Assembly (NCBI GenBank): GCA_964537265.1
Contig: CAZHZE010000001.1
Span: forward strand, 27,103 to 91,102
Direction of reading: 5' to 3'
DNA length: 64,000 nucleotides
DNA from: an uncultured Gammaproteobacteria bacterium
Lineage (GTDB): Bacteria; Patescibacteriota; Patescibacteriia; Patescibacteriales; GWC2-42-12
How positions within the stretch are numbered: position 1 is the first letter of the stretch; the number at the start of each line of letters is the position of its first letter. A program made the translations under genes and the position numbers. Under the pieces are notes generated by a model. That model did no database searches. It was not told the DNA's origin and worked only from the letters and a program-made list of their open reading frames with translations. This document shows, piece by piece, positions 2,486-47,116 of the stretch.

Positions 2486-3154
2486 CTAAGCAGGCTGGGG
2501 TATAAAATGGCCTCCGCGGATAGTTTTTCTTTTTCCCAGAAATTTTTTAATTCGCCGACCTGCGTCACGACGGGCATTTTTTATTTCACGCATACTTTTG
2601 CCGGCACGTTCAGCCTTTTTGGTTTTAACGAAAACATCGTTTCTCGTTGAGCCATGGAACCTTGGCTTGATAATAAAAGCATTGGGTTGCGCCGGCTCGG
2701 CAGGAAATAAATGAGGACAGCAAGGGCGATAATAATTTGCAATATCTTCCCGGTTTTTTAAAAGTTCCTTGCCTTCATCTTCTTCTTCACCGCGAAAAAA
2801 TATTGGCGCGTCCAGGCTGGGAATAATTGTTTCCTCTTTCCCCCGGTTGTCAATCATTGCGATAATGGCATCTTCCGATGATACAAAAGCGACGGAAGCA
2901 ATATCTAAAGGCGACATTACGCAAGATAAAATACTAACCGAGGGTATGACGCCACCTCCGGTTATGATTGCAACCAACTTCTCCTCGTCAGGAACGCGAA
3001 TCTTGCCGGCGCAATGTTTGAATTCTTCCTGAACCGATTGCGGCCAATTTTCTATGCCTAAAGCATTATGCAGCGGCATGATTTGCGCTTTTGTTAAATT
3101 TAAAGGAGCTACAACTTTCTTACCGCCTAAAAAAGAATCAGACCCCTTCTTCAT
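2486..3154 (-). CDS. Hypothetical protein with a strongly basic C-terminal tail
   Basis: 222-aa ORF with an SD-like GGGGGA 8 nt upstream of the ATG. No family recognised. The C-terminus is K/R-rich (KTKKAERAGKSMREIKNARRDAGRRIKKFLGKRK). Confidence 0.55.
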   Translation of the reverse strand: MKKGSDSFLGGKKVVAPLNLTKAQIMPLHNALGIENWPQSVQEEFKHCAGKIRVPDEEKLVAIITGGGVIPSVSILSCVMSPLDIASVAFVSSEDAIIAMIDNRGKEETIIPSLDAPIFFRGEEEDEGKELLKNREDIANYYRPCCPHLFPAEPAQPNAFIIKPRFHGSTRNDVFVKTKKAERAGKSMREIKNARRDAGRRIKKFLGKRKTIRGGHFIPQPA

Positions 3155-3328: not shown

Positions 3329-4798
3329 ATGGCTAAAACAAAGCTATTATTATTATTTTTCTGTTTTTCTTTAGTTTTTGTATTTACTATTAGTGCGGCT
3401 AAGGCCGAAGGTTTTGATCCTAATAATATTATTAGCGATTTAGAAATTTTGGATTATACTTCCATGGGCTTAAATGAAATCCAAACATTCTTACAAAATA
3501 AAGGCAGTTATTTAGCTACCTATTCCTGCCCTGACGCTTACGGCATGATCAGAAAAGCTTCGGAAATAATTTACAATGCGGCGGCTAATAATTTTGACTG
3601 CGACGGCGCTGTTTTAAGCGATAATCCGACTATTGAAGAAAGACAAGCTAAATGCAAAAAAATAACTATCAGCCCGAAATTTCTTTTGGTGCTTTTGCAA
3701 AAAGAGCAAAGTTTAATTGAAAGAAGCACAACTCCGACTCAAAGAAGCCTAGATTGGGCGACCGGTTATGGTTGTCCTGATTCTGGCGGTTGTAATTCAC
3801 GCTGGCAAGGTTTTGGCAAACAAGTTAATTCAGCCGCTTTGCAATTCAGAGATTATATTGATAATCCGCAATATTATACTTACAAAGCCGGCAACACTTA
3901 TACTTTTACCAATACTGACGCCGAGCCTATGACCGTTACGCCGGCTAATCAAGCCACAGCCGCGCTTTATAATTACACGCCGCATGTTTATAACGGCAAT
4001 TATAATTTTTATAAAATCTGGCAACGCTGGTTCACAAAAATTTATCCCGACGGCTCGCTTTTGCAAGCTAGCGGAGAAGCTGGAGTCTGGCTATTGCAAA
4101 ATGGTTTAATTCGTCCATTTTTATCTAAATCAGCTTTGGTCTCTCGCTTTGACATAAATAAAATTATCATCGTAAATAAATCCGATTTGGATAAATATGA
4201 AAAAGGCACGCCGATTAAATTCGCTCAATATTCTTTAGTAAAATCTCCGCGCGGCACGATTTTCTTAATCGTTGATGATAAAAAACGCGGCTTCACTTCT
4301 ATGGAAGCTTTCAGAAAAATGGGCTTTAACCCCGAAGAAGTCGTTAGCGCCGCCTGGGAAGATATAAATTATTATGCCGACGGTCCGAATATTACCGCTA
4401 CCTCTACTTATCCGACCGGCGCTTTGCTGCAAAATAATAAAACCGGTGGAATTTATTATGTAATTGATGGCATCAAATATCCGCTAATAGATAAAATTTT
4501 CTTAACTACTAAATTTAAAAGTAAAAAAATCATAGCTGTAACTCCGGCGGAATTGGATGGATATGAAACAGCCAAACCTTATCTATTCGGCGACGGCGAA
4601 TTGCTTAAAACAAAAGATTCTCCTTATACTTATGTAATTTCCGGCGGAAAAAAACTTTTAATAACCTCGGATAAAGTCTTTACTAGTTTAGGTTATAAAA
4701 TCGAAAATGTTATAATCGTGCCTTCAAGCATTTTGTATTTATATGAAGCCGGCACTCCTTTAACCGAAGAATTATTGGTTAATAATAGTACTAATTAA
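3329..4798 (+). CDS. Secreted protein of unknown function, possibly cell-wall associated
   Basis: 489-aa ORF with an N-terminal signal peptide (LLLLFFCFSLVFVFTISAAKA). No catalytic motif recognised with confidence. Confidence 0.7.
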   Translation: MAKTKLLLLFFCFSLVFVFTISAAKAEGFDPNNIISDLEILDYTSMGLNEIQTFLQNKGSYLATYSCPDAYGMIRKASEIIYNAAANNFDCDGAVLSDNPTIEERQAKCKKITISPKFLLVLLQKEQSLIERSTTPTQRSLDWATGYGCPDSGGCNSRWQGFGKQVNSAALQFRDYIDNPQYYTYKAGNTYTFTNTDAEPMTVTPANQATAALYNYTPHVYNGNYNFYKIWQRWFTKIYPDGSLLQASGEAGVWLLQNGLIRPFLSKSALVSRFDINKIIIVNKSDLDKYEKGTPIKFAQYSLVKSPRGTIFLIVDDKKRGFTSMEAFRKMGFNPEEVVSAAWEDINYYADGPNITATSTYPTGALLQNNKTGGIYYVIDGIKYPLIDKIFLTTKFKSKKIIAVTPAELDGYETAKPYLFGDGELLKTKDSPYTYVISGGKKLLITSDKVFTSLGYKIENVIIVPSSILYLYEAGTPLTEELLVNNSTN

Positions 4799-17405: not shown

Positions 17406-20400
17406 TTAAAATATATTTATATTAACCAAAATTTCATCAATATTGTCATTGTCTATATCGTTTACCGAAACATAGGCGCCTTGTCTGCTTTTTTTATCAG
17501 CAGCGAAAAATTGGCCTAAGAGCTTACCTTTATCGTCAAAAATTCTTACTTGCGGTCCGCCGCCCTGCCCGGCTCCGGCGATAATTTCGTCTTTGCCATC
17601 TCCGTTTATATCTCCTGAGGCAACGTTTACGCCGCCGCGAAAATTCTTGTCAAAAGCGAAAAATTGGCCTAAGAGCTTACCTTTATCGTCAAAAATTCTT
17701 ACTTGCGGTCCGCCGCCCTGCCCGGCTCCGGCGATAATCTGTTTAGTTAAATTATTTTTACTTAATTGAGCTACGGCAAAATTAATATTTATTTTTGAAG
17801 ATACGAAAGGGTTAAAGGAAAAAATAACTTTTCCGTTTTTATAAATAGATATTTTCCCTTCACCATCAACTATAATTTCTTTGGCCCCATCATTATTAAT
17901 GTCGGAAATTAAAATTTTAACTCCGCTGGCCATATTTGGTCGATAAGAAAAAAAACCGTTTCTAACCTGCTGGCCGAAAGAATTAAAAACGCGAATAAAG
18001 CCGCCGTTATAATAAGCGTTATTTTCTATTTCTTTCTGAATTTTTAAAGCGATAAATCCGTCGTTAGGCTTTAATTTAAACCAATTGATTTTTTCTCCGC
18101 TATTTACCATTGGATCTTGCGAGCCTTTTATTTTTTCAAATTCTTCTTTGCTAAAAACGTAAACTTGTTCAACTGAGGTGGAGTTAGTAATAACTATGCC
18201 GTTTTCAAAGTCACGACGCCATAAACCAGCTTGCACGGTTCCGTCTTTAGTATTAAGCAAATTATAAGCCTTAGACTCGGCGCGGCCAAGGTTAATATTA
18301 TACTCATCAAACCACCAAACCTGCGCATGATTCTGGTCGCCTTGATCATAAGAAAAATACCCGTCACCTAATAAAGCGCTAGTTAAACCAAATCTCATAT
18401 TACGCAATTTTTCCGCCCAGCTGCAATCGCCGTCGTTATCAATATTAGAATTAATTATATAAGTATATTTTTCATTGTTATTGTTGAGATAAACATTCAT
18501 TAATTTTGACCAACCATTAGCCCCTAACCATTTAACAGGAAAATTTTCCATCATTTCACCATCTAATTTATCTTTATAAGTCCCGGCAATATTCAAATTA
18601 GCAATTAATGGCAAGGGACTAATTTTTTGTTTAGTATTAACCAATAATTCATTAATGCCATTAAACCAATATTGATTTAAACCGGGCATATTAAGCTTGC
18701 CATTTAATCTTTTATCGGCCGTAACAATATCTCCATTATTTAACCAGTTTAACTCAGAAGAAACCATGTCATAAAAAATTCCATCCCAATTACCATCTGA
18801 TAAAATCTCATCTTTAACAAAATTGGGCAAATAATTTTTCCAACCGCTGCCAATATCCACTATTTTTATAGTAGGCCAGGTGCTATTAAAACTAATAATC
18901 CCATTAGAATTATCTCTAAGCCACCAATTGCCGCTATCAGCGGCTTGATAATTTTTTGCTCTGTATTCCGACCAATCGCCTATTCCTTGTGTGTTAACGC
19001 TCTGGCTAGGCACATAAGCAAAAATCTTTTCTTGCTGATTTTTCGATTTAATATTAAATAATAAATTAGGGGTTAATCTAGCCACTTCAGCGTCAAGAAC
19101 AACTAAATCATATTTAGATAATTCACTTAGGTGCTCTTCGGGAATAATTGGCTGTAAATAATAATTAGCTATTTTAGGAAAAACATCTTTAGAATCAAAA
19201 GCCTGCGTCGACGCAGGAATAAATAAAAAAGAAAGTAATAAAAAAACTGCAGTCGCGTATTTTTTAAAATTATTTTTTATCGAGCGCTTATCTATTAATT
19301 GCTGATAAAATTTTATAATTTCTGATAAATATTTTTCCGGCTGATATTTTGCGCTTACTAAAAGAGCCGCCTGGCTTAATTTTTTTTCATCGCCTTGGTC
19401 TAATTTATGGATGGCGGCGGCTAAACTTTTTTCATCTCCAGCCTTAAATAAGAAACCATTTTCACCATCAACTATCATTTCCTTTAAGCCACCGATAGCC
19501 GAGGCTATAATCGGTTTTCCGGCGGACAACGCCTCTAAAACTACATAGGGAAAATTTTCCGGCCAAATTGACGGAACTATAACTGCGCGAGAATTTATAA
19601 TATAATTATTTAAATCCTGGCCGTATTTTGCGCCGAGCATTTCTATTCTATCCGTTAATTTTAATTTTTCAATTAAATTTTTAATTTTTTTAAAATCTGG
19701 ACCAGCGCCGACAATTTTTAATTTAAACTTTTGTTCAGTTAAGGCCATGGCCTTAATTAAAGTATTAATACCCTTTTCTTCGGCCAATCTACCGTAATAA
19801 AGTAAATATGGCTCACTAGGTAATTTAGGCGTTGAGCCGGATAATGATGCATTATTAAAATTATTAAGCACTTTTATTTTATTTTCCGGAACGCCGAAAT
19901 TAACGCAAATATCTTTCATAAATCTGCTGGGCGCAATAAATAAATCTATTTTTTCATAAACTTTTTTAAAGCGGCAATAATAAGCTTCTAAACTAGCCAA
20001 TAAACTTTTTAAAAATGATTTTTTTAAACATTTATTAAGAGTACAATTATAATACTTTCCGCCGCGGCATTTATAGCAAACTTCTCCGCAAGTAAATAAT
20101 TTATAATTAGGACATATTAATTTATAATCATGCAAAGTCTGCACTATAGGAATATTATATTTTTTTAGAACATTAATAATCGACGAGCTTAATTGATGAG
20201 AAAAATTATGCAGATGCGCGATATCCGGCCGCTCTTCTTTAATTAATTTTTCCAATTGGTTCGCCGCTTCGCTATTATAAAATAATTTAAAAATATTTTT
20301 TAGGCTAAATTTTTCCAAACTAACTGGTTTAGAAAAATAACGGCTATAAGGCGTGGTTTCATTTTTTTTATCCTGCATGGAAAAAGGTATGACCTCATGA

Positions 20401-20492
20401 CCGGCCTTACGCAATAGATCGGATAAAACAAAAAAATGGCGCTCGGATCCGCCTTTTAAATAATAAAATTTATTTATTTGCAGAATTTTCAT
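17406..20492 (-). CDS. Fusion protein: GT4 glycosyltransferase, TM segment, putative glycoside-hydrolase-like domain and FG-GAP/VCBS repeats
   Basis: The N-terminal ~400 aa are GT4-like (PSIWPENFPYVVLEALSAG). A TM segment follows (ATAVFLLLSFLFIPAS), then a W/Y/D-rich TIM-barrel-like region. The C-terminus carries DINNDG / DINGDGKDEIIAGAGQGGGPQVRIFD repeats. Confidence 0.75.
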   Translation of the reverse strand: MKILQINKFYYLKGGSERHFFVLSDLLRKAGHEVIPFSMQDKKNETTPYSRYFSKPVSLEKFSLKNIFKLFYNSEAANQLEKLIKEERPDIAHLHNFSHQLSSSIINVLKKYNIPIVQTLHDYKLICPNYKLFTCGEVCYKCRGGKYYNCTLNKCLKKSFLKSLLASLEAYYCRFKKVYEKIDLFIAPSRFMKDICVNFGVPENKIKVLNNFNNASLSGSTPKLPSEPYLLYYGRLAEEKGINTLIKAMALTEQKFKLKIVGAGPDFKKIKNLIEKLKLTDRIEMLGAKYGQDLNNYIINSRAVIVPSIWPENFPYVVLEALSAGKPIIASAIGGLKEMIVDGENGFLFKAGDEKSLAAAIHKLDQGDEKKLSQAALLVSAKYQPEKYLSEIIKFYQQLIDKRSIKNNFKKYATAVFLLLSFLFIPASTQAFDSKDVFPKIANYYLQPIIPEEHLSELSKYDLVVLDAEVARLTPNLLFNIKSKNQQEKIFAYVPSQSVNTQGIGDWSEYRAKNYQAADSGNWWLRDNSNGIISFNSTWPTIKIVDIGSGWKNYLPNFVKDEILSDGNWDGIFYDMVSSELNWLNNGDIVTADKRLNGKLNMPGLNQYWFNGINELLVNTKQKISPLPLIANLNIAGTYKDKLDGEMMENFPVKWLGANGWSKLMNVYLNNNNEKYTYIINSNIDNDGDCSWAEKLRNMRFGLTSALLGDGYFSYDQGDQNHAQVWWFDEYNINLGRAESKAYNLLNTKDGTVQAGLWRRDFENGIVITNSTSVEQVYVFSKEEFEKIKGSQDPMVNSGEKINWFKLKPNDGFIALKIQKEIENNAYYNGGFIRVFNSFGQQVRNGFFSYRPNMASGVKILISDINNDGAKEIIVDGEGKISIYKNGKVIFSFNPFVSSKININFAVAQLSKNNLTKQIIAGAGQGGGPQVRIFDDKGKLLGQFFAFDKNFRGGVNVASGDINGDGKDEIIAGAGQGGGPQVRIFDDKGKLLGQFFAADKKSRQGAYVSVNDIDNDNIDEILVNINIF
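17502..17738. repeat. Perfect 84-bp direct repeat (17502..17585 and 17655..17738) inside the FG-GAP region
   Basis: The two stretches are identical, are offset by 153 bp (51 codons), and both encode IIAGAGQGGGPQVRIFDDKGKLLGQFFA. Confidence 0.9.
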
Positions 20493-21507: not shown

Positions 21508-22848
21508 ATGTCAAATAAAAAAAGCACTATAATTCTATTCTTTATCGGGCTCTTACTAGTAAGTCTTTTTTTACTAATCAATCTAGAGGCTAGCGCAAAA
21601 ATTTTATTAGTTATCTTGTTTGGCATTTTTACGATCGCTTTTATAAAACCAATCTTAGGATTACTACTCTTAATAATTATAAGACCATGCTTAGATATTC
21701 TAACTGATCAAGCTATTATTACTACTGATCATTTTAGTTTAAACATTGCTTCAATTATTGCTGTTTTAACTATTCTATTCTCTATTATTATTTTAATTAA
21801 AAATTTTTCCAAAATTAAAACCTTGCCGCTTAAATATAGTTGGATTATTTTTGTCGCGCTAGCCATAATATCAATTTTTTTCTCTTACAGCCCCTATTTA
21901 AGCCTGGCTGAAAGCTTGCGCTTACTAAGCATCTTAGCTGTTTACATTTTAGCTTATTTATTAGTTGATTCAAAGCAAGATTTGCAGAATCTAATTAAAG
22001 CTATAATTTTTTCTGCTATTATACCCTCGTTCTTCGCTTTATGGCAATTCTACACCGATACTGGTTTGTCCATACCTTTCGAAGGAATTTATAACAGAAT
22101 TTACGGCACCTTCGCCCACCCTAATTTGTTTGCTTATTATATTTTATTGCCCATAGCTTTATCGCTTTTTATTTTTCTGAGCGGTAATAGAAAAAAAATA
22201 AATAATATTTTATACTTTTTGTTTGCTATATTTTTTACAATAATTTTATCTCTTACTTTTACTAGAGGAGCCTGGCTGTCATTTTTAATAATTTTGGCGG
22301 TAATCGGAATTCTCCGCTATCGCGCTTTATTAATCAGTGCCATAATTGTTTTAGCTCTAGCATATTTATTAATTGAACCATTAAACTACCGCGTTAATGA
22401 TTTAGTTGCTAACCGCTCCGATAGTTCAATCCAATGGCGAATTAATCTTTGGAATGATGCCAAAGAATATGTTAAAGCTCAACCTTTGCTAGGTTATGGC
22501 GCCGGTACGGCTAGCAACTTAATTCTTGATAAAAGAGGAGAGAAATTCGGCTCCAGCGATCCGCACAATGACTATTTAAAAATTGCTCTTGAAAATGGCC
22601 TTATCGGATTACTAACCTACTTAGCAATTATAGCTGGTTTGTTTATAAAGTTGATAAAAACATATTTTGGCGCCGAACAGCCTAAATTAAAAATTTTAAT
22701 TTTATCAATAATTGGCTTATTAATATCTTTCTATACCATGAGCGCCGCGGATAACATTTTAAGAAACACCGCTTTAATGTGGTCGTTTTGGGCGCTTATC
22801 GGCGGTGTCTTTACTATCTCTGCTATAACGAGCAATCAGAAAGAGTGA
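21508..22848 (+). CDS. O-antigen ligase / polymerase-like (Wzy_C family) membrane protein
   Basis: 446 aa and polytopic. It contains a periplasmic-loop-type motif (FTRGAWLSF ... GYGAGT ... DPHNDYLKIALENG). Confidence 0.8.
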   Translation: MSNKKSTIILFFIGLLLVSLFLLINLEASAKILLVILFGIFTIAFIKPILGLLLLIIIRPCLDILTDQAIITTDHFSLNIASIIAVLTILFSIIILIKNFSKIKTLPLKYSWIIFVALAIISIFFSYSPYLSLAESLRLLSILAVYILAYLLVDSKQDLQNLIKAIIFSAIIPSFFALWQFYTDTGLSIPFEGIYNRIYGTFAHPNLFAYYILLPIALSLFIFLSGNRKKINNILYFLFAIFFTIILSLTFTRGAWLSFLIILAVIGILRYRALLISAIIVLALAYLLIEPLNYRVNDLVANRSDSSIQWRINLWNDAKEYVKAQPLLGYGAGTASNLILDKRGEKFGSSDPHNDYLKIALENGLIGLLTYLAIIAGLFIKLIKTYFGAEQPKLKILILSIIGLLISFYTMSAADNILRNTALMWSFWALIGGVFTISAITSNQKE

Positions 22849-22929: not shown

Positions 22930-23604
22930 TTATTTATTGGCTGGCGTCCTTACGGTTATAAAACCATAAGAAGATGAGCAATACCAGTTACCTATAAACC
23001 CCTCGCAGTTATTCGTGCCAACACATTCTTTGTGCCAGCCGTTCCAGTCGGCCTTTAAGTCTTTCCAATAATCAAGGCCTAACTGCAAACAGATTTTACC
23101 TTGCAGTTTAAATTTTGCCTCCACTACATGGTGGGAGCCGTTTTTTACCTCGGCTCTCGATGTCCACCAATGCAATATCTTGTCCGGCGTTTCTTCGGCT
23201 TTTAAAACTAAACAGCCGTTCTCGAGACAAGAATTTTGGATTGGCTGATGCTTATCATCGGCGAACCAATTTGGTTGGCGGCTATATAATCCTCCTTTCT
23301 TTTTATCTAAAAAAGGAGAATCACTTTGGTCGTAGTTCTCTTCAGTAATAATTTTTTCATCGCCTTGCTCATTAATTTCAATGAGCCGAAGAAAATCAAC
23401 AAAGGCTATGCCGCCTTCTCCGCCCTGCTCAGTAGTAGTAGCAACTTGAGCCCAAGCAACAGCAGTAGAAAATCCCGCCGGCGCTTTTTGTCTTAGCACG
23501 TTCTGCTGTTTCCAGATTGCTCCATCTGGATACTTCTGGGTAGTGGCGCAAGACATAAGCAAAAACAATAAAAAGATCATCCCTATAATTTTTAAAATTT
23601 TCAT
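22930..23604 (-). CDS. Lipoprotein of unknown function (exported-protein block, gene 5)
   Basis: I chose the start at 23604 (MKILKIIGMIFLLFLLMSCATT) because AAAGGAGGAG lies 7 nt upstream. It has a lipobox LLMSC and a W/C-rich mature part. Confidence 0.65.
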   Translation of the reverse strand: MKILKIIGMIFLLFLLMSCATTQKYPDGAIWKQQNVLRQKAPAGFSTAVAWAQVATTTEQGGEGGIAFVDFLRLIEINEQGDEKIITEENYDQSDSPFLDKKKGGLYSRQPNWFADDKHQPIQNSCLENGCLVLKAEETPDKILHWWTSRAEVKNGSHHVVEAKFKLQGKICLQLGLDYWKDLKADWNGWHKECVGTNNCEGFIGNWYCSSSYGFITVRTPANK

Positions 23605-23700
23605 GATACACTCCTCCTTTATAAAAGTATTCTTATAAAAATTACGGAACATTATACATTAACATTTTTTTTAATTTTTGTCAACGCATAATACTTTTTT

Positions 23701-23737
23701 AAAAAAATACCCCGGTTTCTTTTATTAGAAACCGGGG
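23701..23737 (-). terminator. Intrinsic terminator after ORF 23762..24289
   Basis: The minus strand reads CCCCGGTTTC-TAATAAAA-GAAACCGGGG followed by TATTTTTTT. Confidence 0.7.
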
Positions 23738-23761: not shown

Positions 23762-24289
23762 TTATTCCCAGGCCGGATAATCTCTTGGCACCGACTTTGT
23801 TTCGCCGGTACTGATTTTTGTAACGAACTGATACGCAATATTGCCTTTTTTGTCAGCTCGACAAAGTTCATCATCAGGGTTGATGTCTAACCAGAAAATT
23901 TTATTTTCTTTTGCTACTTTACCCCAACCCCTCAACATTATAATATCTGACTTTCCGGTACCTTTAACGGTTGCCGTGGCATATCTGCCGGACTTTTCCG
24001 TCTTCACTTTGTAATCGCCGATAGCAACTTTAACCCATTGACCATCAATGTACTCAGCGAAATCGAAATATAATGTCGGCACTCCATCTTTTTGTCTTTC
24101 GGAAAGAGGTATGGCTATTGTTATTCCTTTTTCTGCATCAGGAGCAACTTTCACATATTCTTTTCCGAAACCTAAGCCGCCAAAAGGTGATATAACTTTG
24201 GTATCAGCCGACGGCAATTGAAAATCCGCAAATGCCGTACCACAAACAAAAAACGACACAACAACTAACAACAACCACAACTTTTTCAT
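23762..24289 (-). CDS. Secreted protein of unknown function (block gene 4)
   Basis: Signal peptide MKKLWLLLVVVSFFVCGTAFA. SD AGGAGGAAGTT-ATG. Confidence 0.65.
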   Translation of the reverse strand: MKKLWLLLVVVSFFVCGTAFADFQLPSADTKVISPFGGLGFGKEYVKVAPDAEKGITIAIPLSERQKDGVPTLYFDFAEYIDGQWVKVAIGDYKVKTEKSGRYATATVKGTGKSDIIMLRGWGKVAKENKIFWLDINPDDELCRADKKGNIAYQFVTKISTGETKSVPRDYPAWE

Positions 24290-24336: not shown

Positions 24337-26004
24337 TTAGTAAGACATGGGTTGATTGTGTAACGGTTCATTCAAATTATTAACATTTTCGACTTTCTCA
24401 AATATCGGCTGTTCCACTTTTTTATTGGTCAGCCAATCGTAAAAATCCATCACATACTCGCTAACATCAAGAAGAGCATAAATCTGATATTGATCGCCTT
24501 CGCCACTAAATATCTCTTTATAGATTGCTCCCAAGTTAAGAGACTTAACTTTTTTGTAAGCGAATTTAATATTCGGTCCAATTTCACCGAAATTAAACAA
24601 CCCATCGCTTGCCAAATTTCTTTGAGATAAACCAAATTCTTTTCCAAGTCCAGCTTTTATCGCCGGGGTTATCCGTAAATCACCGATATTAAAATCATAA
24701 ATGGCTTGATCGATGGTTACTTCGTACATCTTATTATCGCTTGTGTCAGGAGCTAAAGGTCCGTTGTCCCAATAATGCTTTTGATCGGCTTTGAAAACAT
24801 GCCGATATTCAGCATTTAGCTCTGTCTCAGGCAAAAACTTTTTGCCTTCGACTCTTCTCGCATAATAATTCAGATGGGCCGAAATAATACCTATTGCATC
24901 CTCCTGCTCGCTGCGGTATTTACCGGTGCCACCTTGTTCTATTGTTGTGCTACCGAAACCACCCTCATTATAAAGGCGGCCATACATAACGTCAATGTCG
25001 CCGTCATAATTTTTGAGGCCGTTTATAAACTTCAAGGAAGGACCAGCAGCCCATTCATTCCATTTATAATTATAGTCCTTGTCATGGCCTTCGCCACCAG
25101 ACAGGAACGCAGCAATACCACCGTAAAAATCCGTATCACCGACTTTACCGATGAAGCATCTTTCTCTGACTTTGAGCCAGTAATAATACCCATCGGCATC
25201 CTGATCCGAATGCGAATTTTCATAATACCCGGTTCCCATGATGAGATCGGTTTTGCAATGACCATTATATTCGCCGCAAGGCTCTTCCTTAACCTCTTCC
25301 ACCGGAATTTCTTCGGGCGGAATCAATAGAGCCATAGGCTCTTCGGGGGGCGCTGGTTCAGGCTCGGGCACAACTTCGGGTTCGGGCGGTGCAGGCGCAG
25401 GCTCGGCTACCACTTCGGGTTCCGGAGGCTTCGGCGCCTCTTCTTTCCACCAAGACCAATTACTGCAAATAAGCGGTTTGATAAGGTAATAAATATAACC
25501 ATCAAACTCAACCTTAGCATACATCTCTGCATCTAGCTGGTCTTCCGGCAACTGCACCTCGACATTATTACGAACCTTATAATTATCGTACATCTGTTGA
25601 GCAAACACTTTCCCAACTTCCATGCGATAAGGTTCACTTTGTTTTTTCTCAACGGCCGCTGTGAACTTCACTTTAACTTCTTCGGGGAGAAGATCAAAAA
25701 GATTCATCTCCATTGCTTTAATAAAATTTCTGCCGTCGAAAGGGTTTGTGCCGCCTTTTTCCCAAATAAAGGGAAAAGCCTTTTCTGGAATTTCCAGAGT
25801 CTGGCCGGGGTAAATCCTATTAGGGTTCTTAATCTCTGCTTCGTTCGCCTTGTAAACAGTTTGCCAATTAAGGCCATACTGCTTAGCGATCGAGGAGAGA
25901 CACTCGCCTTTCTTAACTGGGTGTTGCGTAGCCTGGGCAAGCCCGGTCACGCAAAACATTGTCAGAAAGGAAACGACAACTGCAAAAAATAATGTCTTCT
26001 TCAT
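24337..26004 (-). CDS. Secreted LysM protein with a Pro-rich linker and a beta-rich C-terminal domain (block gene 3)
   Basis: A signal peptide is followed by a LysM motif (GECLSSIAKQYGLNWQTVYKANEAEIKNPNRIYPGQTLEIP). Residues ~188-242 form a PEPEVV/PAPP linker. The last ~300 aa show alternating-pattern segments. Confidence 0.75.
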   Translation of the reverse strand: MKKTLFFAVVVSFLTMFCVTGLAQATQHPVKKGECLSSIAKQYGLNWQTVYKANEAEIKNPNRIYPGQTLEIPEKAFPFIWEKGGTNPFDGRNFIKAMEMNLFDLLPEEVKVKFTAAVEKKQSEPYRMEVGKVFAQQMYDNYKVRNNVEVQLPEDQLDAEMYAKVEFDGYIYYLIKPLICSNWSWWKEEAPKPPEPEVVAEPAPAPPEPEVVPEPEPAPPEEPMALLIPPEEIPVEEVKEEPCGEYNGHCKTDLIMGTGYYENSHSDQDADGYYYWLKVRERCFIGKVGDTDFYGGIAAFLSGGEGHDKDYNYKWNEWAAGPSLKFINGLKNYDGDIDVMYGRLYNEGGFGSTTIEQGGTGKYRSEQEDAIGIISAHLNYYARRVEGKKFLPETELNAEYRHVFKADQKHYWDNGPLAPDTSDNKMYEVTIDQAIYDFNIGDLRITPAIKAGLGKEFGLSQRNLASDGLFNFGEIGPNIKFAYKKVKSLNLGAIYKEIFSGEGDQYQIYALLDVSEYVMDFYDWLTNKKVEQPIFEKVENVNNLNEPLHNQPMSY

Positions 26005-26266: not shown

Positions 26267-27322
26267 TTATTTCTTGATTATCTTACTGTTATATACCAAC
26301 ACGCAGTTATTGTACTCTTCATACGTATTGGCTTTTTCACAGGGCGTGCCCTGGATAGAAAGTTTCACATTTTCCGGTAATAAACGTTCGGAATTGCGAA
26401 AATTTTTCGTCGCGATTGACGACGAAGCTACTGGTTTATAATTCTTCTCGTAGTACTCCAGCAATTCATAATAATCACCTGCTGTCAGTACTCTGTCCAT
26501 GTAGCCGGGTTGATTCAAATCTTCCTGAAATAATTGCTTTGGGATTTGAAAAACCTTAGATGCTAAAATATAAGCTCCGTAAGCTTGCGGAGTTAAAATG
26601 GGATATGTTGCTACCACATACCATCCTTCGCCAAAAAATTGCTTTACAAGCTTATCACGTCCGCTTTTTTCCAACTTCTTAAGAACTTCTTCAGGCAAGG
26701 CGGAATAAAAAGGAATATTATACTCCTTATAAATAGCCCGCACTTCCTTTTGCAGCTTCTGACCGACAAAAGAAGCATTAAGGTCAACCGCTCTTTCAAA
26801 AGCCTCGGTGCCGTTTTCATACAACATCGGGTTAACCTCGCTAACTCTCGGCAAAAAATTCTCGGCTTTTTCAGGATTAAATTTCCCAATGTCTCCGAGC
26901 TTTATATATTTCTCCGAGCGCGGATCGAAAATGCGTTTTCCAGCATGATCGGCAATTCCGATAAAAGTATTATCGAAATCAAACTTTACAGATACTGGAA
27001 TTAAAACGGTTAATTTATTACCCAACGTTTTCACGCCGAAAAATTCATAGAATTTCCAATCTTCACCGTCTTTGTAATAAACCGGCGTCATCCAGGCAAT
27101 CGAAACCTGTTCAATGCCTTCATCATTTAACAGAGCCGTATCGGCAATGTTTAATTTTTTCGGCAAAGGAACTTCTATTTTATAAACCGCTTTAATCGAT
27201 TCCGCTTTATTAAATTGCGGAACGGCGTACATCTCGCCCAGGACTATCTTTGAGTTACTCCCACACCCGCAAAACATAACCGCGACCATCAGAAAGATGG
27301 CCAAAAAGATATTTCTTTTCAT
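26267..27322 (-). CDS. Lipoprotein of unknown function (block gene 2)
   Basis: Lipobox VMFCGCGS. I chose the start at 27322 because AGGAGG lies 6 nt upstream; the ORF-track start at 27328 abuts the SD. Confidence 0.7.
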   Translation of the reverse strand: MKRNIFLAIFLMVAVMFCGCGSNSKIVLGEMYAVPQFNKAESIKAVYKIEVPLPKKLNIADTALLNDEGIEQVSIAWMTPVYYKDGEDWKFYEFFGVKTLGNKLTVLIPVSVKFDFDNTFIGIADHAGKRIFDPRSEKYIKLGDIGKFNPEKAENFLPRVSEVNPMLYENGTEAFERAVDLNASFVGQKLQKEVRAIYKEYNIPFYSALPEEVLKKLEKSGRDKLVKQFFGEGWYVVATYPILTPQAYGAYILASKVFQIPKQLFQEDLNQPGYMDRVLTAGDYYELLEYYEKNYKPVASSSIATKNFRNSERLLPENVKLSIQGTPCEKANTYEEYNNCVLVYNSKIIKK

Positions 27323-27333
27323 GTCCATCCTCC

Positions 27334-28083
27334 TTAGACTCGTTTGATTTGTCTGATTTTACCTTCGGCAATCAACTTATCAACCTGATCGCCGTATTTG
27401 TCTTTCCGACGCCAACACTGTCGTACATTTGCCTTGGCTTCGCCTTCTTTCTCCTTCCAAATCCGATCACCACCATTTTTGTGGCAAAAAGGAATGAAAT
27501 AACGATCAAGTTCAGCATTGTACTCAATTTCGGCCTCAAAAATACCATTTTCTTCAACCGGGACGAAAAACTTTTTATCAGTAACTGTTTGAGAAACTTC
27601 ATTTTTTTGCTCCGCTTGAACCGACGCTTGCTTTTTATCTCGAAGGAAAAAAACTATTGCAATGATAATTATTGCAAGGATAGCGAAGACAATTAAATTA
27701 TCTCTTCTTTCTTCTTGTTGTTTTTTAATTCTGTCTTTCCTATCTTCATCCATCTCTTTTACAATCTTTTGCGCATCTTTCAATGTCGCAATAGCTTCTG
27801 CAACTTGTTTTTTTGCTTCTTCGGGAGTTAACTTAGCTATCGGCCGATCAGATAGATAATAAACAATTTTCTGACCAACCACCACCTGCGTACCCAAATT
27901 TGGGTTCCACTGGTGTATCTCTTTAATGTTTATCCCCTGGACTTTCCAGGTGTACATCAATTCGCCGAGAGTATCGCCGACTTTTACCGTATAAATAACT
28001 TTCTCACCGGCAAATGCCAACGATCCGACTAACAACATAATCATAACCATTACAACCAAAATCATCTTTTTCATTTCCAACAT
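27334..28083 (-). CDS. Bitopic LysM protein: signal peptide, LysM, coiled coil, TM segment and cytoplasmic tail (block gene 1)
   Basis: LysM motif VKVGDTLGELMYTWKVQGINIKEIHQWNPNLGTQVVVGQKIVY, a charged helix, a TM segment (LIVFAILAIIIIAIVFFL) and a C-terminal domain of about 100 aa. An alternative start lies at 28074. Confidence 0.7.
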   Translation of the reverse strand: MLEMKKMILVVMVMIMLLVGSLAFAGEKVIYTVKVGDTLGELMYTWKVQGINIKEIHQWNPNLGTQVVVGQKIVYYLSDRPIAKLTPEEAKKQVAEAIATLKDAQKIVKEMDEDRKDRIKKQQEERRDNLIVFAILAIIIIAIVFFLRDKKQASVQAEQKNEVSQTVTDKKFFVPVEENGIFEAEIEYNAELDRYFIPFCHKNGGDRIWKEKEGEAKANVRQCWRRKDKYGDQVDKLIAEGKIRQIKRV

Positions 28084-28249: not shown

Positions 28250-29119
28250 TTAATTATCCGAATATGGCTTTCCGAATATATTATTCATACTTCCCTGCTT
28301 AGAAATTTCTTCATTGTTATCTAAGTCATCATCACTATCTAAATCATTATTTATTTTATTTTCACTAAAATTAAATTCTGTCTCATCTAACGCTTCCGTT
28401 GGTTCGGCTACGCTCGCGAGTACAGCCGGCGCGAATTCTCGTTCTCGATAAGAATTATTTTTTTCTTCATGTTTATCGTGAGAATTTTTTGGCGCTAAAC
28501 TGACATTATATTTTTTTTCAGGATATAAATAAATATAAACGCCGGAAAAAATTAAACCTAGCACTAGGGCCAAATTAAAATTTAAAATTAAATTTGGTTT
28601 AACCGGATAGTTGCTGGTAATCGGATCATCAATTACTTTTATAGAAACATTATCTGCGCCACCATGATAAAGTCCATGTTTAGTTTGTAAAGTATAAACT
28701 ATGGCACGAGCAATCAAATCTGTTTGAGTGCGATCTTTATGATAAACATTAATTGTGATAATACCCGAGTCATTATTAGCTTTAGTGCTAACGGTTTTAT
28801 TCCAAGTCTTCATTTGTTTTTTTACTGTCTGACCGAAATAACTTTTATCAACCGCATAACCAGAGTTCAAAACATTTTCAAAAAATGAATTAGAATAAAC
28901 GACCTTGGCCAAGATGTTGCTTAAATACTCAGTTGATTTTGAAGCTGTGTACGGATCGGAGCTAATTGAGTTTTGAATTATTAGTATTTGAGAACTTGCC
29001 CCATATTTAAACGGTTGAACAACGGTTAAAATAGTGGCTAAAATTAAAAAAATAAAAACAAAAGACGCAATGGTGCTTTTTTTCTTATTTATTAGGGATA
29101 AATAATCTTTTAATTCCAT
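28250..29119 (-). CDS. Wzz-like polysaccharide chain-length determinant family protein
   Basis: An N-terminal TM segment follows MELKDYLSLINKKKSTI, a second TM segment lies near residue 200, and the C-terminal tail is acidic. This architecture is typical of the Wzz N-terminal domain family. Confidence 0.55.
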   Translation of the reverse strand: MELKDYLSLINKKKSTIASFVFIFLILATILTVVQPFKYGASSQILIIQNSISSDPYTASKSTEYLSNILAKVVYSNSFFENVLNSGYAVDKSYFGQTVKKQMKTWNKTVSTKANNDSGIITINVYHKDRTQTDLIARAIVYTLQTKHGLYHGGADNVSIKVIDDPITSNYPVKPNLILNFNLALVLGLIFSGVYIYLYPEKKYNVSLAPKNSHDKHEEKNNSYREREFAPAVLASVAEPTEALDETEFNFSENKINNDLDSDDDLDNNEEISKQGSMNNIFGKPYSDN

Positions 29120-36302: not shown

Positions 36303-39056
36303 TTATAATTCCCTAGCCTTTTCAACCTGCAACTTAGCTTCTTTATCTATAATAATTGTGTCTCTTCTTTTTAAACCATTAGCTAAAACTTGATTAGCGA
36401 TTTCATTTTCAATTTTTTCCTGGATTAAACGCCTAAGCGGCCGGGCGCCGAATTTAGGATCAAAACCTAAACCAGCTAATTTTTTTATCCCCTCTTCTTC
36501 ATATTTTAAACCAATGCCTTTGGTTTCCAAAAGCCGCTTAACTTTATTAAGCATTAATTTCGTGATACTTTCAACTTCTTCTAACCCCAAAGGTTTAAAT
36601 ACCACAACGCCATCAAAACGATTAATTAATTCTGGTTTTAAATATTTATTAAGTTGATCATTTATTAAAGACTGCTTTATAACATCAAGCGAAGCACCGG
36701 CGCGTATCTGATCTTGGATATAAACCGCTCCGATATTAGAAGTCGCAATAATAATGCAGTTAGTAAAATTTATTGTTCTGCCCATGCCATCAGTTAAACG
36801 TCCATCATCCATAACTTGCAAAAATAAATTTAATATATCAGGGTGGGCTTTCTCCAACTCATCTAAAAGAACCAGAGAAAACGGAGCTTTGCGCACGGCT
36901 TCGGTTAAATACCCTAAAGCTCCATTGGGCGAACCGATCATTTTTTCCACAGATTCAGGACGCTGATATTCACTCATATCTATTCTAACCATATAATTTT
37001 CATCGCCAAAATAAACCTCGGCAACGGTTTTCGCTAATTCTGTTTTACCGACTCCAGTCGGACCCAAAAATAAAAAGCTGGCGATCGGGCGTTTCTGTTC
37101 TCTTAATTCTGTGCGCGCGCGCCTTAAACTCGCCGCCACCATATCAACCGCCTCAGATTGGCCAATCATACGATTATGAATCTTTTCTTCAAGATTAAGC
37201 AAAGTCTCGCTTTCCTTCTCCGTAATTTTCGTTAAAGGAATTTTTGTTTTCTGGCTGACTATCTCAGCTACATCTTCAACATCAACCATGCTATTTATAC
37301 CTTTATCTTTAGAAACTTTAACCGCAATAGCTTCTAAAATATCTACTGCTTTAGCCGGCAAATATTTATCATGAATATATTTAGCCGATAATTCCACGGC
37401 TTTGGCAATGCTGGCGTAAGTAAAATAAACTTGAAATTTCGCTTCGTAAAATCCTATTTTACTTTCTATCATCTGAATGGATAAATTATTATTCGGTTCT
37501 TCTACCTCTACCTTAGACATAATTGAGCCAAGCGGTTGGTTTTCAATATACTTTACATAACTTTCCTGAGTAACGCTGGCTAAACAAATAATATTATGGC
37601 GGTCAATGGCATTCATTAAAACATCGGATAATTCCAAGCTTTCTTCTCCGCCGGCCGTGATGCCCATTAAATTTTCTATATTATTTATGTATAAAATAAT
37701 ATTGCCGGCACGGGCTACTTCATCAATTATAACCAAAAGCCTTTCTTCCGCTTGAGCGGCGGTAATGCCGCTTAGCAAACGAGAAATGTCCAATTCTAAA
37801 AGACGCTTATCCTTTAAAGTTTTTGGCACATCTTCTTCCACCATCTGTCTAGCAATTTGGCCAATAATTATATTTTTACCCACGCCGGGATTGCCGCAAA
37901 GTATTATGCCATTTTTACCGCTTTCTAAAATTTCAAATATTTGTTTAATTTCTTGCTCGCGCCCGACACATAATTCCAACCTTCCCCATTTAGCCGCCAA
38001 AGTTAAATCATATGCAAAATGATTTAGAATAGGCGTGGCTACGGCCGTGTAAGCTCTATCCATGGCATTGCCAGGTTTAAAGCGCGAAGCCTTTTTATAA
38101 AGATGGTAATTTTCTACTAGCCTTTCGCTAATAATAAACCATTGGATAACATTATTTATTTTATCATGATCAATTTCTAAATCGTAAAGCAATTCGCTTA
38201 AATTTTTATCTCGAGATAAAATAGGTAAAATAAAATGAATCGGTTCAACTTTTTTTTGTCCGGAATTTAAAGCGCTAATATAACTTTCAAAAAAAATTTC
38301 TTTAATTTCAGGCGATATTTCCGTCGATTGATTTATTGTTTCTACGGCCAATAATTGATTTTTTAATTTAGAAATTAGTTTAGCCGAATCAACGTTTAAT
38401 CGAGAAAAAACCGCTGACACTCCCCTGTCTTTCAATAAATTAAAAAATAAATGAATCGGTCTAACTTGACCATGTTTTGAAAAACTAGCTAAATTAAAAG
38501 CCTGTTCGATTGTTTTAATGGCGATCTGGCTAAAACCGCTAGAAACTTCAATTTTGTATTTATTTCTTGTCTTATTAAATTCCACCCAGTTATTAGGAGA
38601 TTTAAATTCATTTTTTTGGCCATATTTTATTTTTTTTATTTTTTGCTTGGACGCTTGTTCTTCGCTTAAACGATAAATTATAAACATATCTACAAGCAAA
38701 CTAAGCCAAAAAAATAAAATAAAGGGGCTTTTAACCCGCCAAAAAGAAAAAGCCGATAGGCCCTGAGTTTCTTGACCAGCTATTACCACCCAATATGTTA
38801 AAGCCATCAACCCGCCCAAACCGATAACTAAAGCCGACAAATTTAAAAATATATTTAAACCTTTTTTTAAATGCCTTAATTTTATAGCCGGCAGACTAAT
38901 GGGTAAACCCCAATAAAAAAATCTGCCTTCATAAATTGCAATAAGGCCGACGCCTGAACAATTTTTGCAAGATAATCCGTTATTAATTTTACCTGTACCG
39001 CCGCAAACCGAACAAGTTATATATTGAATGTTAGATTTTTTTATATCTTCGGACAT
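36303..39056 (-). CDS. Membrane-anchored Hsp100/Clp-family ATPase with an N-terminal zinc ribbon and a degenerate first AAA+ module
   Basis: N-terminus CSVCGGTGKINNGLSCKNCSGVG (two CxxCxGxG), then about three TM segments and Clp_N-like repeats. D1 has GNPGVGKN and ILYINNIEN in place of GxxGxGKT and hhhhDE. D2 is intact ([19 protein letters not shown]). There is no coiled-coil middle domain. Confidence 0.8.
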   Translation of the reverse strand: MSEDIKKSNIQYITCSVCGGTGKINNGLSCKNCSGVGLIAIYEGRFFYWGLPISLPAIKLRHLKKGLNIFLNLSALVIGLGGLMALTYWVVIAGQETQGLSAFSFWRVKSPFILFFWLSLLVDMFIIYRLSEEQASKQKIKKIKYGQKNEFKSPNNWVEFNKTRNKYKIEVSSGFSQIAIKTIEQAFNLASFSKHGQVRPIHLFFNLLKDRGVSAVFSRLNVDSAKLISKLKNQLLAVETINQSTEISPEIKEIFFESYISALNSGQKKVEPIHFILPILSRDKNLSELLYDLEIDHDKINNVIQWFIISERLVENYHLYKKASRFKPGNAMDRAYTAVATPILNHFAYDLTLAAKWGRLELCVGREQEIKQIFEILESGKNGIILCGNPGVGKNIIIGQIARQMVEEDVPKTLKDKRLLELDISRLLSGITAAQAEERLLVIIDEVARAGNIILYINNIENLMGITAGGEESLELSDVLMNAIDRHNIICLASVTQESYVKYIENQPLGSIMSKVEVEEPNNNLSIQMIESKIGFYEAKFQVYFTYASIAKAVELSAKYIHDKYLPAKAVDILEAIAVKVSKDKGINSMVDVEDVAEIVSQKTKIPLTKITEKESETLLNLEEKIHNRMIGQSEAVDMVAASLRRARTELREQKRPIASFLFLGPTGVGKTELAKTVAEVYFGDENYMVRIDMSEYQRPESVEKMIGSPNGALGYLTEAVRKAPFSLVLLDELEKAHPDILNLFLQVMDDGRLTDGMGRTINFTNCIIIATSNIGAVYIQDQIRAGASLDVIKQSLINDQLNKYLKPELINRFDGVVVFKPLGLEEVESITKLMLNKVKRLLETKGIGLKYEEEGIKKLAGLGFDPKFGARPLRRLIQEKIENEIANQVLANGLKRRDTIIIDKEAKLQVEKAREL

Positions 39057-46005: not shown

Positions 46006-46066
46006 ATTATAACTGAATTTTATCAAGGAGGAGTGCCTAAGGAGCACTCTTTTATTGTTTGTTAAT

Positions 46067-47116
46067 ATGGAAAAAAATCACGGAAAATTTATAGTGATTG
46101 ACGGTATAGACGGTTCAGGAAAAACCACCCAAACTAAACTTTTGGCGGAAAATTTAATGCAAGCTGGTTTTGATATAAAAATAATTGACTTTCCGCAATA
46201 CAACACAAAATCAGCCGGTTTAGTTGAAGAATATTTGAGCGGTAAATATGGTTCATTAGAAAAAGTCGGGCCTTATCGCGCTTCTATTTTTTACGCCTGT
46301 GACCGCTATGACGCCAGCTTCAAAATAAAACGATGGCTTAAAGAAGGAAAAATCATTATTTCCAACCGCTATGTAATGTCTAATATGGGTCATCAAGGCA
46401 GTAAAATAAAAAATTCTCTGGAAAGAAAACATTTTTTTAATTGGCTAAATCAACTTGAATACGAAATTTTTAATATACCGAGACCTGATTTAAATATTAT
46501 TCTACATCTTAAACCAGAAATCGCTAAAGCCTTAGTCGATCGAAGACAGAGGCAAGATTGGTTTAATAAAACCAGCGACATTCATCAAGCAGATTTAAAC
46601 CATTTAAAAAGAGCTGAACAAACTTATTTACAAATTGCTAACTCTCATCCTGATTGCGTTATAATTGAGTGCGCTAATGAGCGAGAAATTTTACCGCCAG
46701 CAGAAATTAATAATCTAATTTTCAGGCAAGTTATAAATAAATTAGCTTTGTTTCCTAAAGCAAATTTAAAAAACAAAAGGAAGATGATTATTGAAAGATT
46801 AACGCCGACGGCCTTCGCTCCGACTAAAGCCGATCACCAGCGGCCATTATTTAATTTATATTCAGCGGTCGGCATAACTATAAACTCAGGAGAGAATGCG
46901 GACATAAAAACCGGTTTAAAAATTTATTTGCCAAAAAACTATATCGGTTTGATTTTAGACTACCAGCCGAATTTAAAAAATAATTTGATAATTTTAAAAA
47001 ATAGAATTAACTGCGAAACTAACTCAGAAATTATTATTAATTTAACGAATTACAGCGACCAACCGCTAGCTATCCCGGCCGGACAAAAAATTGCGCAAAT
47101 GTTGATAATTGGCTAA
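46067..47116 (+). CDS. tmk: Thymidylate kinase fused to a degenerate dUTPase-like C-terminal domain
   Basis: The N-terminal part has FIVIDGIDGSGKTTQ and ACDRYD. The last ~110 aa align to Dut only at motif 4 (GQKIAQM). Motifs 1-3 are altered (FNLYS, LDYQPN, INCETNSE) and motif 5 is absent. Confidence 0.8.
   Translation: MEKNHGKFIVIDGIDGSGKTTQTKLLAENLMQAGFDIKIIDFPQYNTKSAGLVEEYLSGKYGSLEKVGPYRASIFYACDRYDASFKIKRWLKEGKIIISNRYVMSNMGHQGSKIKNSLERKHFFNWLNQLEYEIFNIPRPDLNIILHLKPEIAKALVDRRQRQDWFNKTSDIHQADLNHLKRAEQTYLQIANSHPDCVIIECANEREILPPAEINNLIFRQVINKLALFPKANLKNKRKMIIERLTPTAFAPTKADHQRPLFNLYSAVGITINSGENADIKTGLKIYLPKNYIGLILDYQPNLKNNLIILKNRINCETNSEIIINLTNYSDQPLAIPAGQKIAQMLIIG

Follow-up and report, generated by a model that had tools for sequence, protein, structure and literature searches.

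A single protein that ties the cell wall to an outer membrane through a wall-binding module and a β-barrel has a precedent in OmpM/SlpA of the diderm Terrabacteria, the clade to which the Candidate Phyla Radiation (CPR; also called Patescibacteria) is assigned (10.1101/2021.05.31.446380). OmpM/SlpA combine an N-terminal SLH module, an extended coiled-coil stalk and a C-terminal barrel of 16-30 strands, with both termini on the wall side. In the OmpA family, a small eight-stranded barrel serves as membrane anchor and is joined by a proline-rich hinge to a peptidoglycan-binding OmpA_C domain, while intimin and invasin carry a signal peptide, a periplasmic LysM domain and a 12-stranded barrel, and type Va autotransporters (Hbp, EspP, BrkA, NalP, EstA, AIDA-I) end in a 12-stranded barrel that is preceded by an α-helical linker. 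In Thermotoga, a Terrabacterium without lipopolysaccharide, the toga is a sheath of hydrophobic-belted β-barrels (Ompβ, anchored by Ompα) with only lipid patches (PMC10160955). Here we describe a gene on a 64-kb stretch of contig CAZHZE010000001.1 (64,000 nucleotides, hereafter the window), which derives from a Patescibacteria-type genome and encodes an exported LysM protein with a C-terminal domain that is very probably, on the evidence of structure prediction, a 12-stranded barrel of the outer-membrane protein (OMP) type. As OMP-type β-barrels, BamA and a tethering system serve as genomic markers of a second membrane, such a protein bears on the envelope of a phylum that is treated as monoderm in scenarios of outer-membrane loss and gain (10.1101/2021.05.31.446380, PMC8871954, PMC11665869).

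The open reading frame (ORF; 24337..26004, minus strand) starts with ATG and encodes 555 amino acids (aa). Its parts, with AlphaFold2 (AF2) confidence given as the predicted local distance difference test (pLDDT), are as follows.

25930..26004, minus strand: Sec-type signal peptide, residues 1-25, cleaved at ...GLAQA/TQ, read directly from the sequence
25786..25917, minus strand: LysM peptidoglycan-binding domain, residues 30-73 (PF01476, E=9e-13, 48.4 bits against a gathering cutoff of 20.9)
25435..25773, minus strand: family-specific α/β middle domain, residues 78-190 (AF2: two helices and a six-stranded sheet, pLDDT 95-98)
25258..25434, minus strand: disordered Pro/Glu-rich spacer, residues 191-249, including a short aliphatic patch, MALLIPP (pLDDT 44-63 in both AF2 models)
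25342..25419, no strand: tandem duplication of 39 nucleotides, two copies, 79% identical, encoding PEPEVV.EP.PAP twice (repeat search)
24463..25257, minus strand: predicted 12-stranded OMP-type β-barrel, residues 250-514 (AF2, Foldseek, family-wide column alternation)
24424..24462, minus strand: amphipathic α-helix, residues 515-527, conserved and placed immediately behind the last strand (assigned by DSSP in both AF2 models)
24337..24423, minus strand: C-terminal tail, short and disordered, at residues 528-555, plus the stop codon, with no passenger (pLDDT 30-50)

An initial annotation, made from the DNA letters and their translations, had listed a signal peptide, a LysM domain, a domain of about 110 aa, a spacer and a β-rich C-terminus in this order, and this description was correct in every detail that could be checked. 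We obtained the fold of the C-terminal part in two AF2 runs. With seven relatives from a word-indexed search, the model contained 12 long antiparallel strands at pLDDT 80-90; with an alignment of 150 sequences, the mean pLDDT was 87 and the barrel, again with 12 strands and closed, reached 95-98. The strands comprise residues 251-263, 270-288, 291-308, 311-328, 333-350, 363-380, 394-412, 426-440, 443-456, 472-483, 486-498 and 505-513. All six peptides that the initial annotation had quoted as β-like are present and lie in strands 3, 4, 6, 9, 10 and 11; of the two folds it had considered, the membrane β-barrel is the one that the AlphaFold model it had called for produced, and the β-solenoid is ruled out by the closed barrel of that model.

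In a Foldseek comparison with the PDB, either model gave about 180-188 matches at E<=1e-3, and the best 50 were all outer-membrane β-barrels; the soluble non-barrel fold that the initial annotation had named as contrary to its proposal did not emerge. The leading matches are 12-stranded type Va translocators, with Hbp (3aeh, E=4e-10) and BrkA (3qq2, target TM-score (TMt) 0.59) followed by EspP, NalP, EstA and AIDA-I; porins, BamA and OmpM rank lower, OmpM1 (8bys) being a weak match at TMt 0.25. Given that the autotransporter barrels (E 4e-10 to 1e-7, TMt 0.5-0.6) share only 10-14% identity with the target at a root-mean-square deviation (RMSD) of 6-7 Å, the resemblance is one at the fold level only.

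The initial annotation had also pointed to alternating hydrophobic and polar stretches. This pattern is not a chance property of one sequence, as it recurs column by column throughout the 150-sequence alignment: in nearly every strand, columns that are 0.8-0.99 hydrophobic and almost free of charge alternate with columns that are dominated by D/E/K/R, with a charged fraction of 0.5-0.9, or by Gly (for example at 335-341, 394-404, 427-436, 443-453, 473-483, 488-495 and 506-514). Tyr, Trp and Phe are enriched at the strand ends (252, 274, 286, 311/313, 333, 363, 381, 390-391, 412, 436, 457, 483, 506). On the side of the termini, the connections between strands are mostly 2-4 aa long, while the opposite side has variable connections of which most exceed this length, with a maximum of 15 aa; strands 2-6 run well past the hydrophobic belt on the long-loop side, and the belt abuts the short-turn side. 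Alternation, aromatic girdles, short turns and long loops, which generally mark transmembrane β-barrels, are thus all found when the column statistics are mapped onto the AF2 strands, and the layout of loops and turns is the canonical OMP topology, under which the spacer, the middle domain and LysM would all lie on the 'periplasmic' side. Since a 12-stranded barrel cannot bury a hydrophobic face internally, this face would have to meet lipid or a tight protein lattice. The terminal side carries a single turn of 13 residues (381-393, DNA ~24826-24864) with the motif Y-x-R-R-x-x-G-E/K-K-W-F-P-E; glycines apart, no other motif of the barrel is as well conserved, and the turn may be where the middle domain or an operon partner docks. 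The amphipathic column pattern of the helix that follows the last strand is likewise kept across the family, and the tail behind it, 28 aa in the target, has a family median of 19 aa and a maximum of 130 aa.

The predicted signal peptide, read from the protein sequence, is MKKTLFFAVVVSFLTMFCVTGLAQA, and together with the PF01476 match it bears out the export signal and LysM domain that had been noted from the sequence. An N-terminal hydrophobic segment is kept in 135 of the 150 aligned members; in seven of the 150 the first such segment begins more than 30 residues in, and some proteins, for example the members P0044 and P0063, have by eye N-terminal segments of 18-20 residues that resemble membrane anchors rather than cleaved signal peptides, in which case the N-terminus would stay at the cell membrane. 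In Pfam and NCBIfam scans of the target, LysM was the sole match (NCBIfam LysM models matching as well), all PDB sequence matches of the whole protein, among them Kbp, SafA and Ecp6, fall within this domain, and PF01476 was also found in 60 of 92 family members that were scanned. The middle domain, which the initial annotation had correctly recognised as a unit of about 110 aa and which AF2 folds with confidence, has no Pfam match in the target or these 92 members and no sequence relative in the PDB, where a profile search gave noise. It always co-occurs with the barrel, and its motif C180-x-N182-W is near-invariant (C180 in 140 and N182 in 138 of 150 alignment rows, most of the others being gaps).

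The Pro/Glu-rich spacer, counted by composition, covers residues 188-242 (55 aa; DNA 25279-25443), exactly the coordinates that had been given for a GC-rich PEPEVV/PAPP segment; its G+C fraction is 0.62, against a window average of ~0.35. Short internal repeats, noted in the same place, are present in the form of the 39-nucleotide tandem duplication, although Tandem Repeats Finder with default scoring reported no tandem repeat in the spacer. Across the family, the linker has a median length of 43 aa, with 24% Pro; an aliphatic-Pro patch such as LLIPP is seen in 40 of 150 members. One member, P0019, carries an extra β-rich insertion of about 90 aa (residues ~190-285) between middle domain and Pro-rich spacer, indicating that the stalk region tolerates the insertion of domains.

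To delimit the family, we ran an exhaustive HMMER search with a profile lacking LysM, which recovered at least 318 cluster representatives (50% identity) at E<=1e-3, 195 of them at E<=1e-10. As far as labels go, the family is restricted to Patescibacteria: every credibly labelled member is assigned to the 'Patescibacteria group' or to Candidatus Gribaldobacteria, Falkowbacteria or Moranbacteria, and the gene is single-copy in every locus examined. It also occurs on contigs labelled 'Undibacterium sp.' (locus L016, JBGSBW010000017.1) and 'uncultured Gammaproteobacteria' (L009, L011). L009 and L016 share the CPR-type synteny of the other loci, with RRF, RseP, Wzz, lipoprotein, barrel and Wzy; we have thus rejected the labels of these two as evidence of hosts outside the CPR, and consider them probably wrong, the result of mis-binning or default labelling. 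In a separate observation, five members (P0040, P0083, P0099, P0118, P0137) carry CxxCH motifs of the c-type haem-binding kind, which in four of the five fall in the initial ~60 residues, ahead of the LysM and middle domains, while P0099 has two further in. Database names for members are limited to 'LysM domain-containing' or hypothetical protein, and in the literature that we searched no description was found of this family, of a LysM-barrel protein or of an OMP in CPR. The family is a pair of unannotated domains on the known theme of a wall-binding module plus outer-membrane barrel, and it defines two new domain families where the current annotation says only 'LysM domain-containing protein'.

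What could such a protein do? The interpretation that we favour, and to which we give about an even chance of being right, is that of an exported envelope protein which connects the peptidoglycan of the cell itself with an outermost layer that is hydrophobic and contains lipid. After Sec export, the LysM domain would bind peptidoglycan, probably with help from the family-specific α/β domain; the Pro-rich spacer of ~55 aa would act as an extended stalk; and the 12-stranded barrel, with its hydrophobic exterior, aromatic girdles and charged lumen, would be embedded in the outer layer, both termini facing the wall. This would amount to a wall-to-outer-layer tether of the OmpM/SlpA or OmpA kind, which may also provide a narrow channel, and whose gene would be expressed jointly with those for a membrane protein that binds peptidoglycan, for a lipoprotein and for a small secreted protein, beside Wzz/Wzy surface-polysaccharide genes. 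By analogy, it is the OmpM/OmpA-style tether that the protein most resembles. With OmpM/SlpA it shares the N-terminal wall-binding module, the extended stalk, the C-terminal OMP-type barrel and, as predicted, both termini on the wall side. Here, however, LysM and a novel α/β domain take the place of SLH (no PF00395 match in the target or the 92 members), the stalk is proline-rich instead of coiled-coil, and the barrel has 12 strands; moreover, CPR are considered monoderm and are reported to have lost porins and SLH, unlike the hosts of OmpM/SlpA (10.1101/2021.05.31.446380). OmpA offers the small barrel as membrane anchor and the Pro-rich hinge, but in reversed domain order, with eight strands instead of 12 and with OmpA_C instead of LysM.

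Several points weigh against this interpretation. The initial annotation had anticipated that a barrel would be unexpected in CPR-like bacteria, and the source has turned out to be of the Patescibacteria type, which is described as monoderm (PMC11665869, PMC6744442, PMC12102498): CPR are reported to lack outer-membrane systems, with TonB-ExbBD and PilQ absent and with microscopy suggesting an envelope that is not Gram-negative (PMC6744442), reviews call Patescibacteria monoderm (PMC11665869), their type IV secretion system (T4SS) is of the monoderm type (PMC12102498), and the cultured Minisyncoccus has been described as Gram-positive (PMC12281837). In the 64-kb window and 17 relative loci with flanks of up to 10 kb, which together are a small fraction of the genomes, there is no BamA/Omp85, POTRA, Lpt, Lol or Tol-Pal component; on the tether interpretation, the barrel would be assembled without BamA. 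Sequence likeness to known OMPs is essentially nil: the barrel-domain profile had no match among PDB sequences at E<=10, and in the Pfam scan of 92 members OMP_b-brl was touched by one (1e-4) and BBP2_2 by one. There is also no C-terminal aromatic β-signal, as the last strand is followed by the helix and the tail; this strand does fit the pattern polar-x-G-x-x-hydrophobic-x-hydrophobic, though any amphipathic strand could. Finally, that the hydrophobic face is the exterior of the barrel is itself something we infer from the geometry of the model.

How a barrel could lie beyond the wall where no classical outer membrane exists may be modelled by the toga of Thermotoga, in which β-barrel proteins make up a sheath that has only patches of lipid (PMC10160955). 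Taken as an analogy, it demonstrates that an outer layer can be built of barrels in the absence of such a membrane, although Thermotoga has BamA and trimeric porin-like barrels, while the CPR protein is known here as a predicted single chain. Somewhat unlikely in our estimate is the further idea that genuine monoderms are not what one large branch of Patescibacteria consists of, namely Parcubacteria-type lineages such as Moran-, Falkow- and Gribaldobacteria, and that these cells surround themselves with a lipid-containing or toga-like sheath around the LysM-anchored barrel, assembled without a recognisable BamA. A periodic 'S-layer' has reportedly been seen on ultra-small groundwater cells, and this could be the LysM-barrel protein. 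On this idea of a sheath, the family would be what is left of an outer membrane, or a new invention of one, in a lineage that serves as a textbook example of its loss. More generally, a phylum-specific, single-copy, operon-encoded barrel can be read in three ways, as a sign of an overlooked outer hydrophobic layer, of BAM-free assembly or use (BAM, β-barrel assembly machinery), or of delivery into a host membrane, each of which bears on envelope evolution or on the feeding of ultra-small epibionts.

In the last of these readings, the barrel would insert into the membrane of a host, for instance the outer membrane of a Gram-negative cell, as an anchor or nutrient pore, with LysM on the peptidoglycan of either the epibiont or the host. 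Cultivated Patescibacteria are obligate epibionts that draw nutrients from their hosts by unknown means (PMC11665869), a host target would account for an OMP-type barrel in an organism that itself has neither outer membrane nor BAM (PMC6744442), and with its length and flexibility the Pro-rich spacer could reach from one cell to another. We nevertheless consider this unlikely, because the gene lies in a housekeeping envelope/polysaccharide operon instead of accompanying genes for type IV pili, T4SS or lytic enzymes, because some members are apparently anchored by an N-terminal transmembrane segment, and because spontaneous insertion of monomeric 12-stranded barrels into foreign membranes is not known, pore-forming toxins building their barrels from oligomers. 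A different partner is suggested by diderm polysaccharide export systems, which make use of β-barrel porins such as AlgE, PgaA, BcsC and myxobacterial Wzp. That the barrel serves the adjacent surface-polysaccharide pathway, of the Wzx/Wzy type, as its terminal channel is in keeping with the Wzz-like and Wzy-like genes and glycosyltransferases that flank the gene in most lineages examined, and the PgaA barrel (4y25) is among the fold matches, weakly, at TMt 0.32. Known polysaccharide porins have 16-18 strands, however, and 12 strands around a conserved, highly charged lumen suggest a narrow or closed pore, which makes an export conduit distinctly unlikely; as it would still require an outer layer, it refines rather than replaces the tether that we favour.

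The ranking of the fold matches raises the question whether the protein is a classical type Va-like autotransporter, whose barrel would deliver LysM and the middle domain onto the cell surface, for LysM to attach to the peptidoglycan of a host. Translocator barrels are the best matches, and the order of an N-terminal cargo and a C-terminal 12-stranded barrel agrees, yet we regard this as very unlikely: the similarity stops at the low identity and high RMSD given above, PF03797 (Autotransporter) has no match in the target or the 92 members, and the part that should form an α-helical pore linker, residues 191-249, is the Pro-rich, disordered spacer with only a three-residue helical turn; the conserved helix of the target comes after the barrel instead of before it. 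The N-terminal part, moreover, consists of LysM and a small α/β domain and not of a β-helical passenger, and in members with an apparent membrane anchor the N-terminus could not be released. For an inverse autotransporter (type Ve), the comparison with intimin/invasin made in the initial annotation holds for the signal peptide, the LysM domain and the 12-stranded barrel, but not beyond: the target has an extra middle domain and spacer between LysM and barrel, no inverse-autotransporter Pfam family matched at E<=1 (target) or E<=0.05 (92 members), and intimin and invasin are not among the best 50 Foldseek matches in the PDB. Above all, the C-terminal passenger (Ig-like/lectin), its defining feature, is absent, the barrel being followed only by the 13-aa helix and the disordered tail, which leaves this reading with next to no probability. 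A barrel that is no membrane protein at all, but a soluble or wall-embedded β-structure or an artefact of prediction, would suit an organism expected to lack an outer membrane as well as the missing sequence homology to known OMPs. We judge it highly improbable, considering that two independent AF2 runs agree, the confidence in the barrel reaching pLDDT 95-98, and that a hydrophobic face on each strand cannot be buried in water save in lipid or in a tight protein lattice.

The barrel gene is the third of four in a row on the minus strand, with polysaccharide genes on either side:

28250..29119, minus strand: Wzz-like polysaccharide chain-length determinant, upstream neighbour (PF02706, E=2e-6)
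27334..28083, minus strand: first operon gene, 249 aa, with signal peptide, LysM-like ectodomain (LysM E=1.1e-3, below the Pfam cutoff), transmembrane helix and conserved cytoplasmic C-terminal domain
26267..27328, minus strand: second operon gene, 353-aa lipoprotein with lipobox ...FCG/C (orthologues L001_341, E 4e-35, and L003_341, E 4e-25, in the same position)
23762..24289, minus strand: last operon gene, 175-aa secreted protein (orthologue L001_169, E 2e-17)
23710..23737, no strand: bidirectional terminator-like hairpin with a perfect 11-bp stem, seven GC pairs and T-runs on both strands, between the 175-aa gene and a 240-aa lipoprotein gene
21508..22848, plus strand: Wzy/O-antigen-ligase-like polymerase, downstream neighbour (PF04932, E=2.6e-22)

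A promoter-like site upstream of 28083 and the strong hairpin bracket the four genes as an operon. The arrangement belongs to a conserved cassette of a Wzz-like protein, a membrane protein with a peptidoglycan-binding ectodomain, a lipoprotein, the LysM-barrel protein, a small secreted protein, and a Wzy-like polymerase with glycosyltransferases; in most loci examined, its order is kept between lineages in which the barrel proteins are only 20-30% identical, the accessory genes varying to some extent. Orthologues of the 249-aa protein occupy the same position in L001, L003 and L006, with an OmpA-like ectodomain in the relative from L003 (5903-6703) and with only the transmembrane helix and cytoplasmic domain retained in L006. 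The 353-aa lipoprotein has no Pfam or NCBIfam match, and in other lineages a different lipoprotein takes its place. In most of the other loci that were examined, the next gene after that of the barrel encodes a small secreted protein. The Wzz-like gene lies upstream in L001, L003, L005, L006, L013, L014 and L015, and Wzy_C downstream in L001, L003, L005, L014 and L016.

Two further genes of the window deserve mention. The 240-aa Cys-rich lipoprotein beyond the hairpin (22930-23652, minus strand, lipobox LMS/C) is absent from the closest syntenic relative, L001, but has a distant homologue in the same neighbourhood of the Moranbacteria-like L014 (10777-11571; 23% identity, E=2e-16). At 17406-20492 (minus strand), a GT4 glycosyltransferase, a GHL15 putative glycosyl hydrolase and FG-GAP repeats are fused in a single protein of 1028 aa; in L003 they are separate genes.

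The window as a whole is a piece of ordinary chromosome, with two ClpB-like genes, PBP2, a Mur ligase, DnaK/J, DnaB, GatB, ribosomal protein L1 and NusG, and three tRNAs as the only hits of tRNA and Rfam scans. In this housekeeping context we rejected a prophage or plasmid origin, and a horizontal island was discarded as well, since the Pro-rich spacer largely accounts for the local rise in G+C and relatives have the cassette in synteny. ORFs of 489 aa (3329-4798, plus strand), 222 aa (2486-3154, minus strand) and 332 aa (61833-62831, minus strand) have no Pfam match, the first of them no NCBIfam match either. The two ClpB-like AAA+ genes lie at 36303-39056 (minus strand) and 24-2384 (plus strand), and the 917-aa copy has an N-terminal extension of ~180 aa, without a Pfam match, ahead of a weakly matched Clp_N. 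At 46055-47116 (plus strand), thymidylate kinase and dUTPase are fused in one ORF of 353 aa that adjoins thymidylate synthase.

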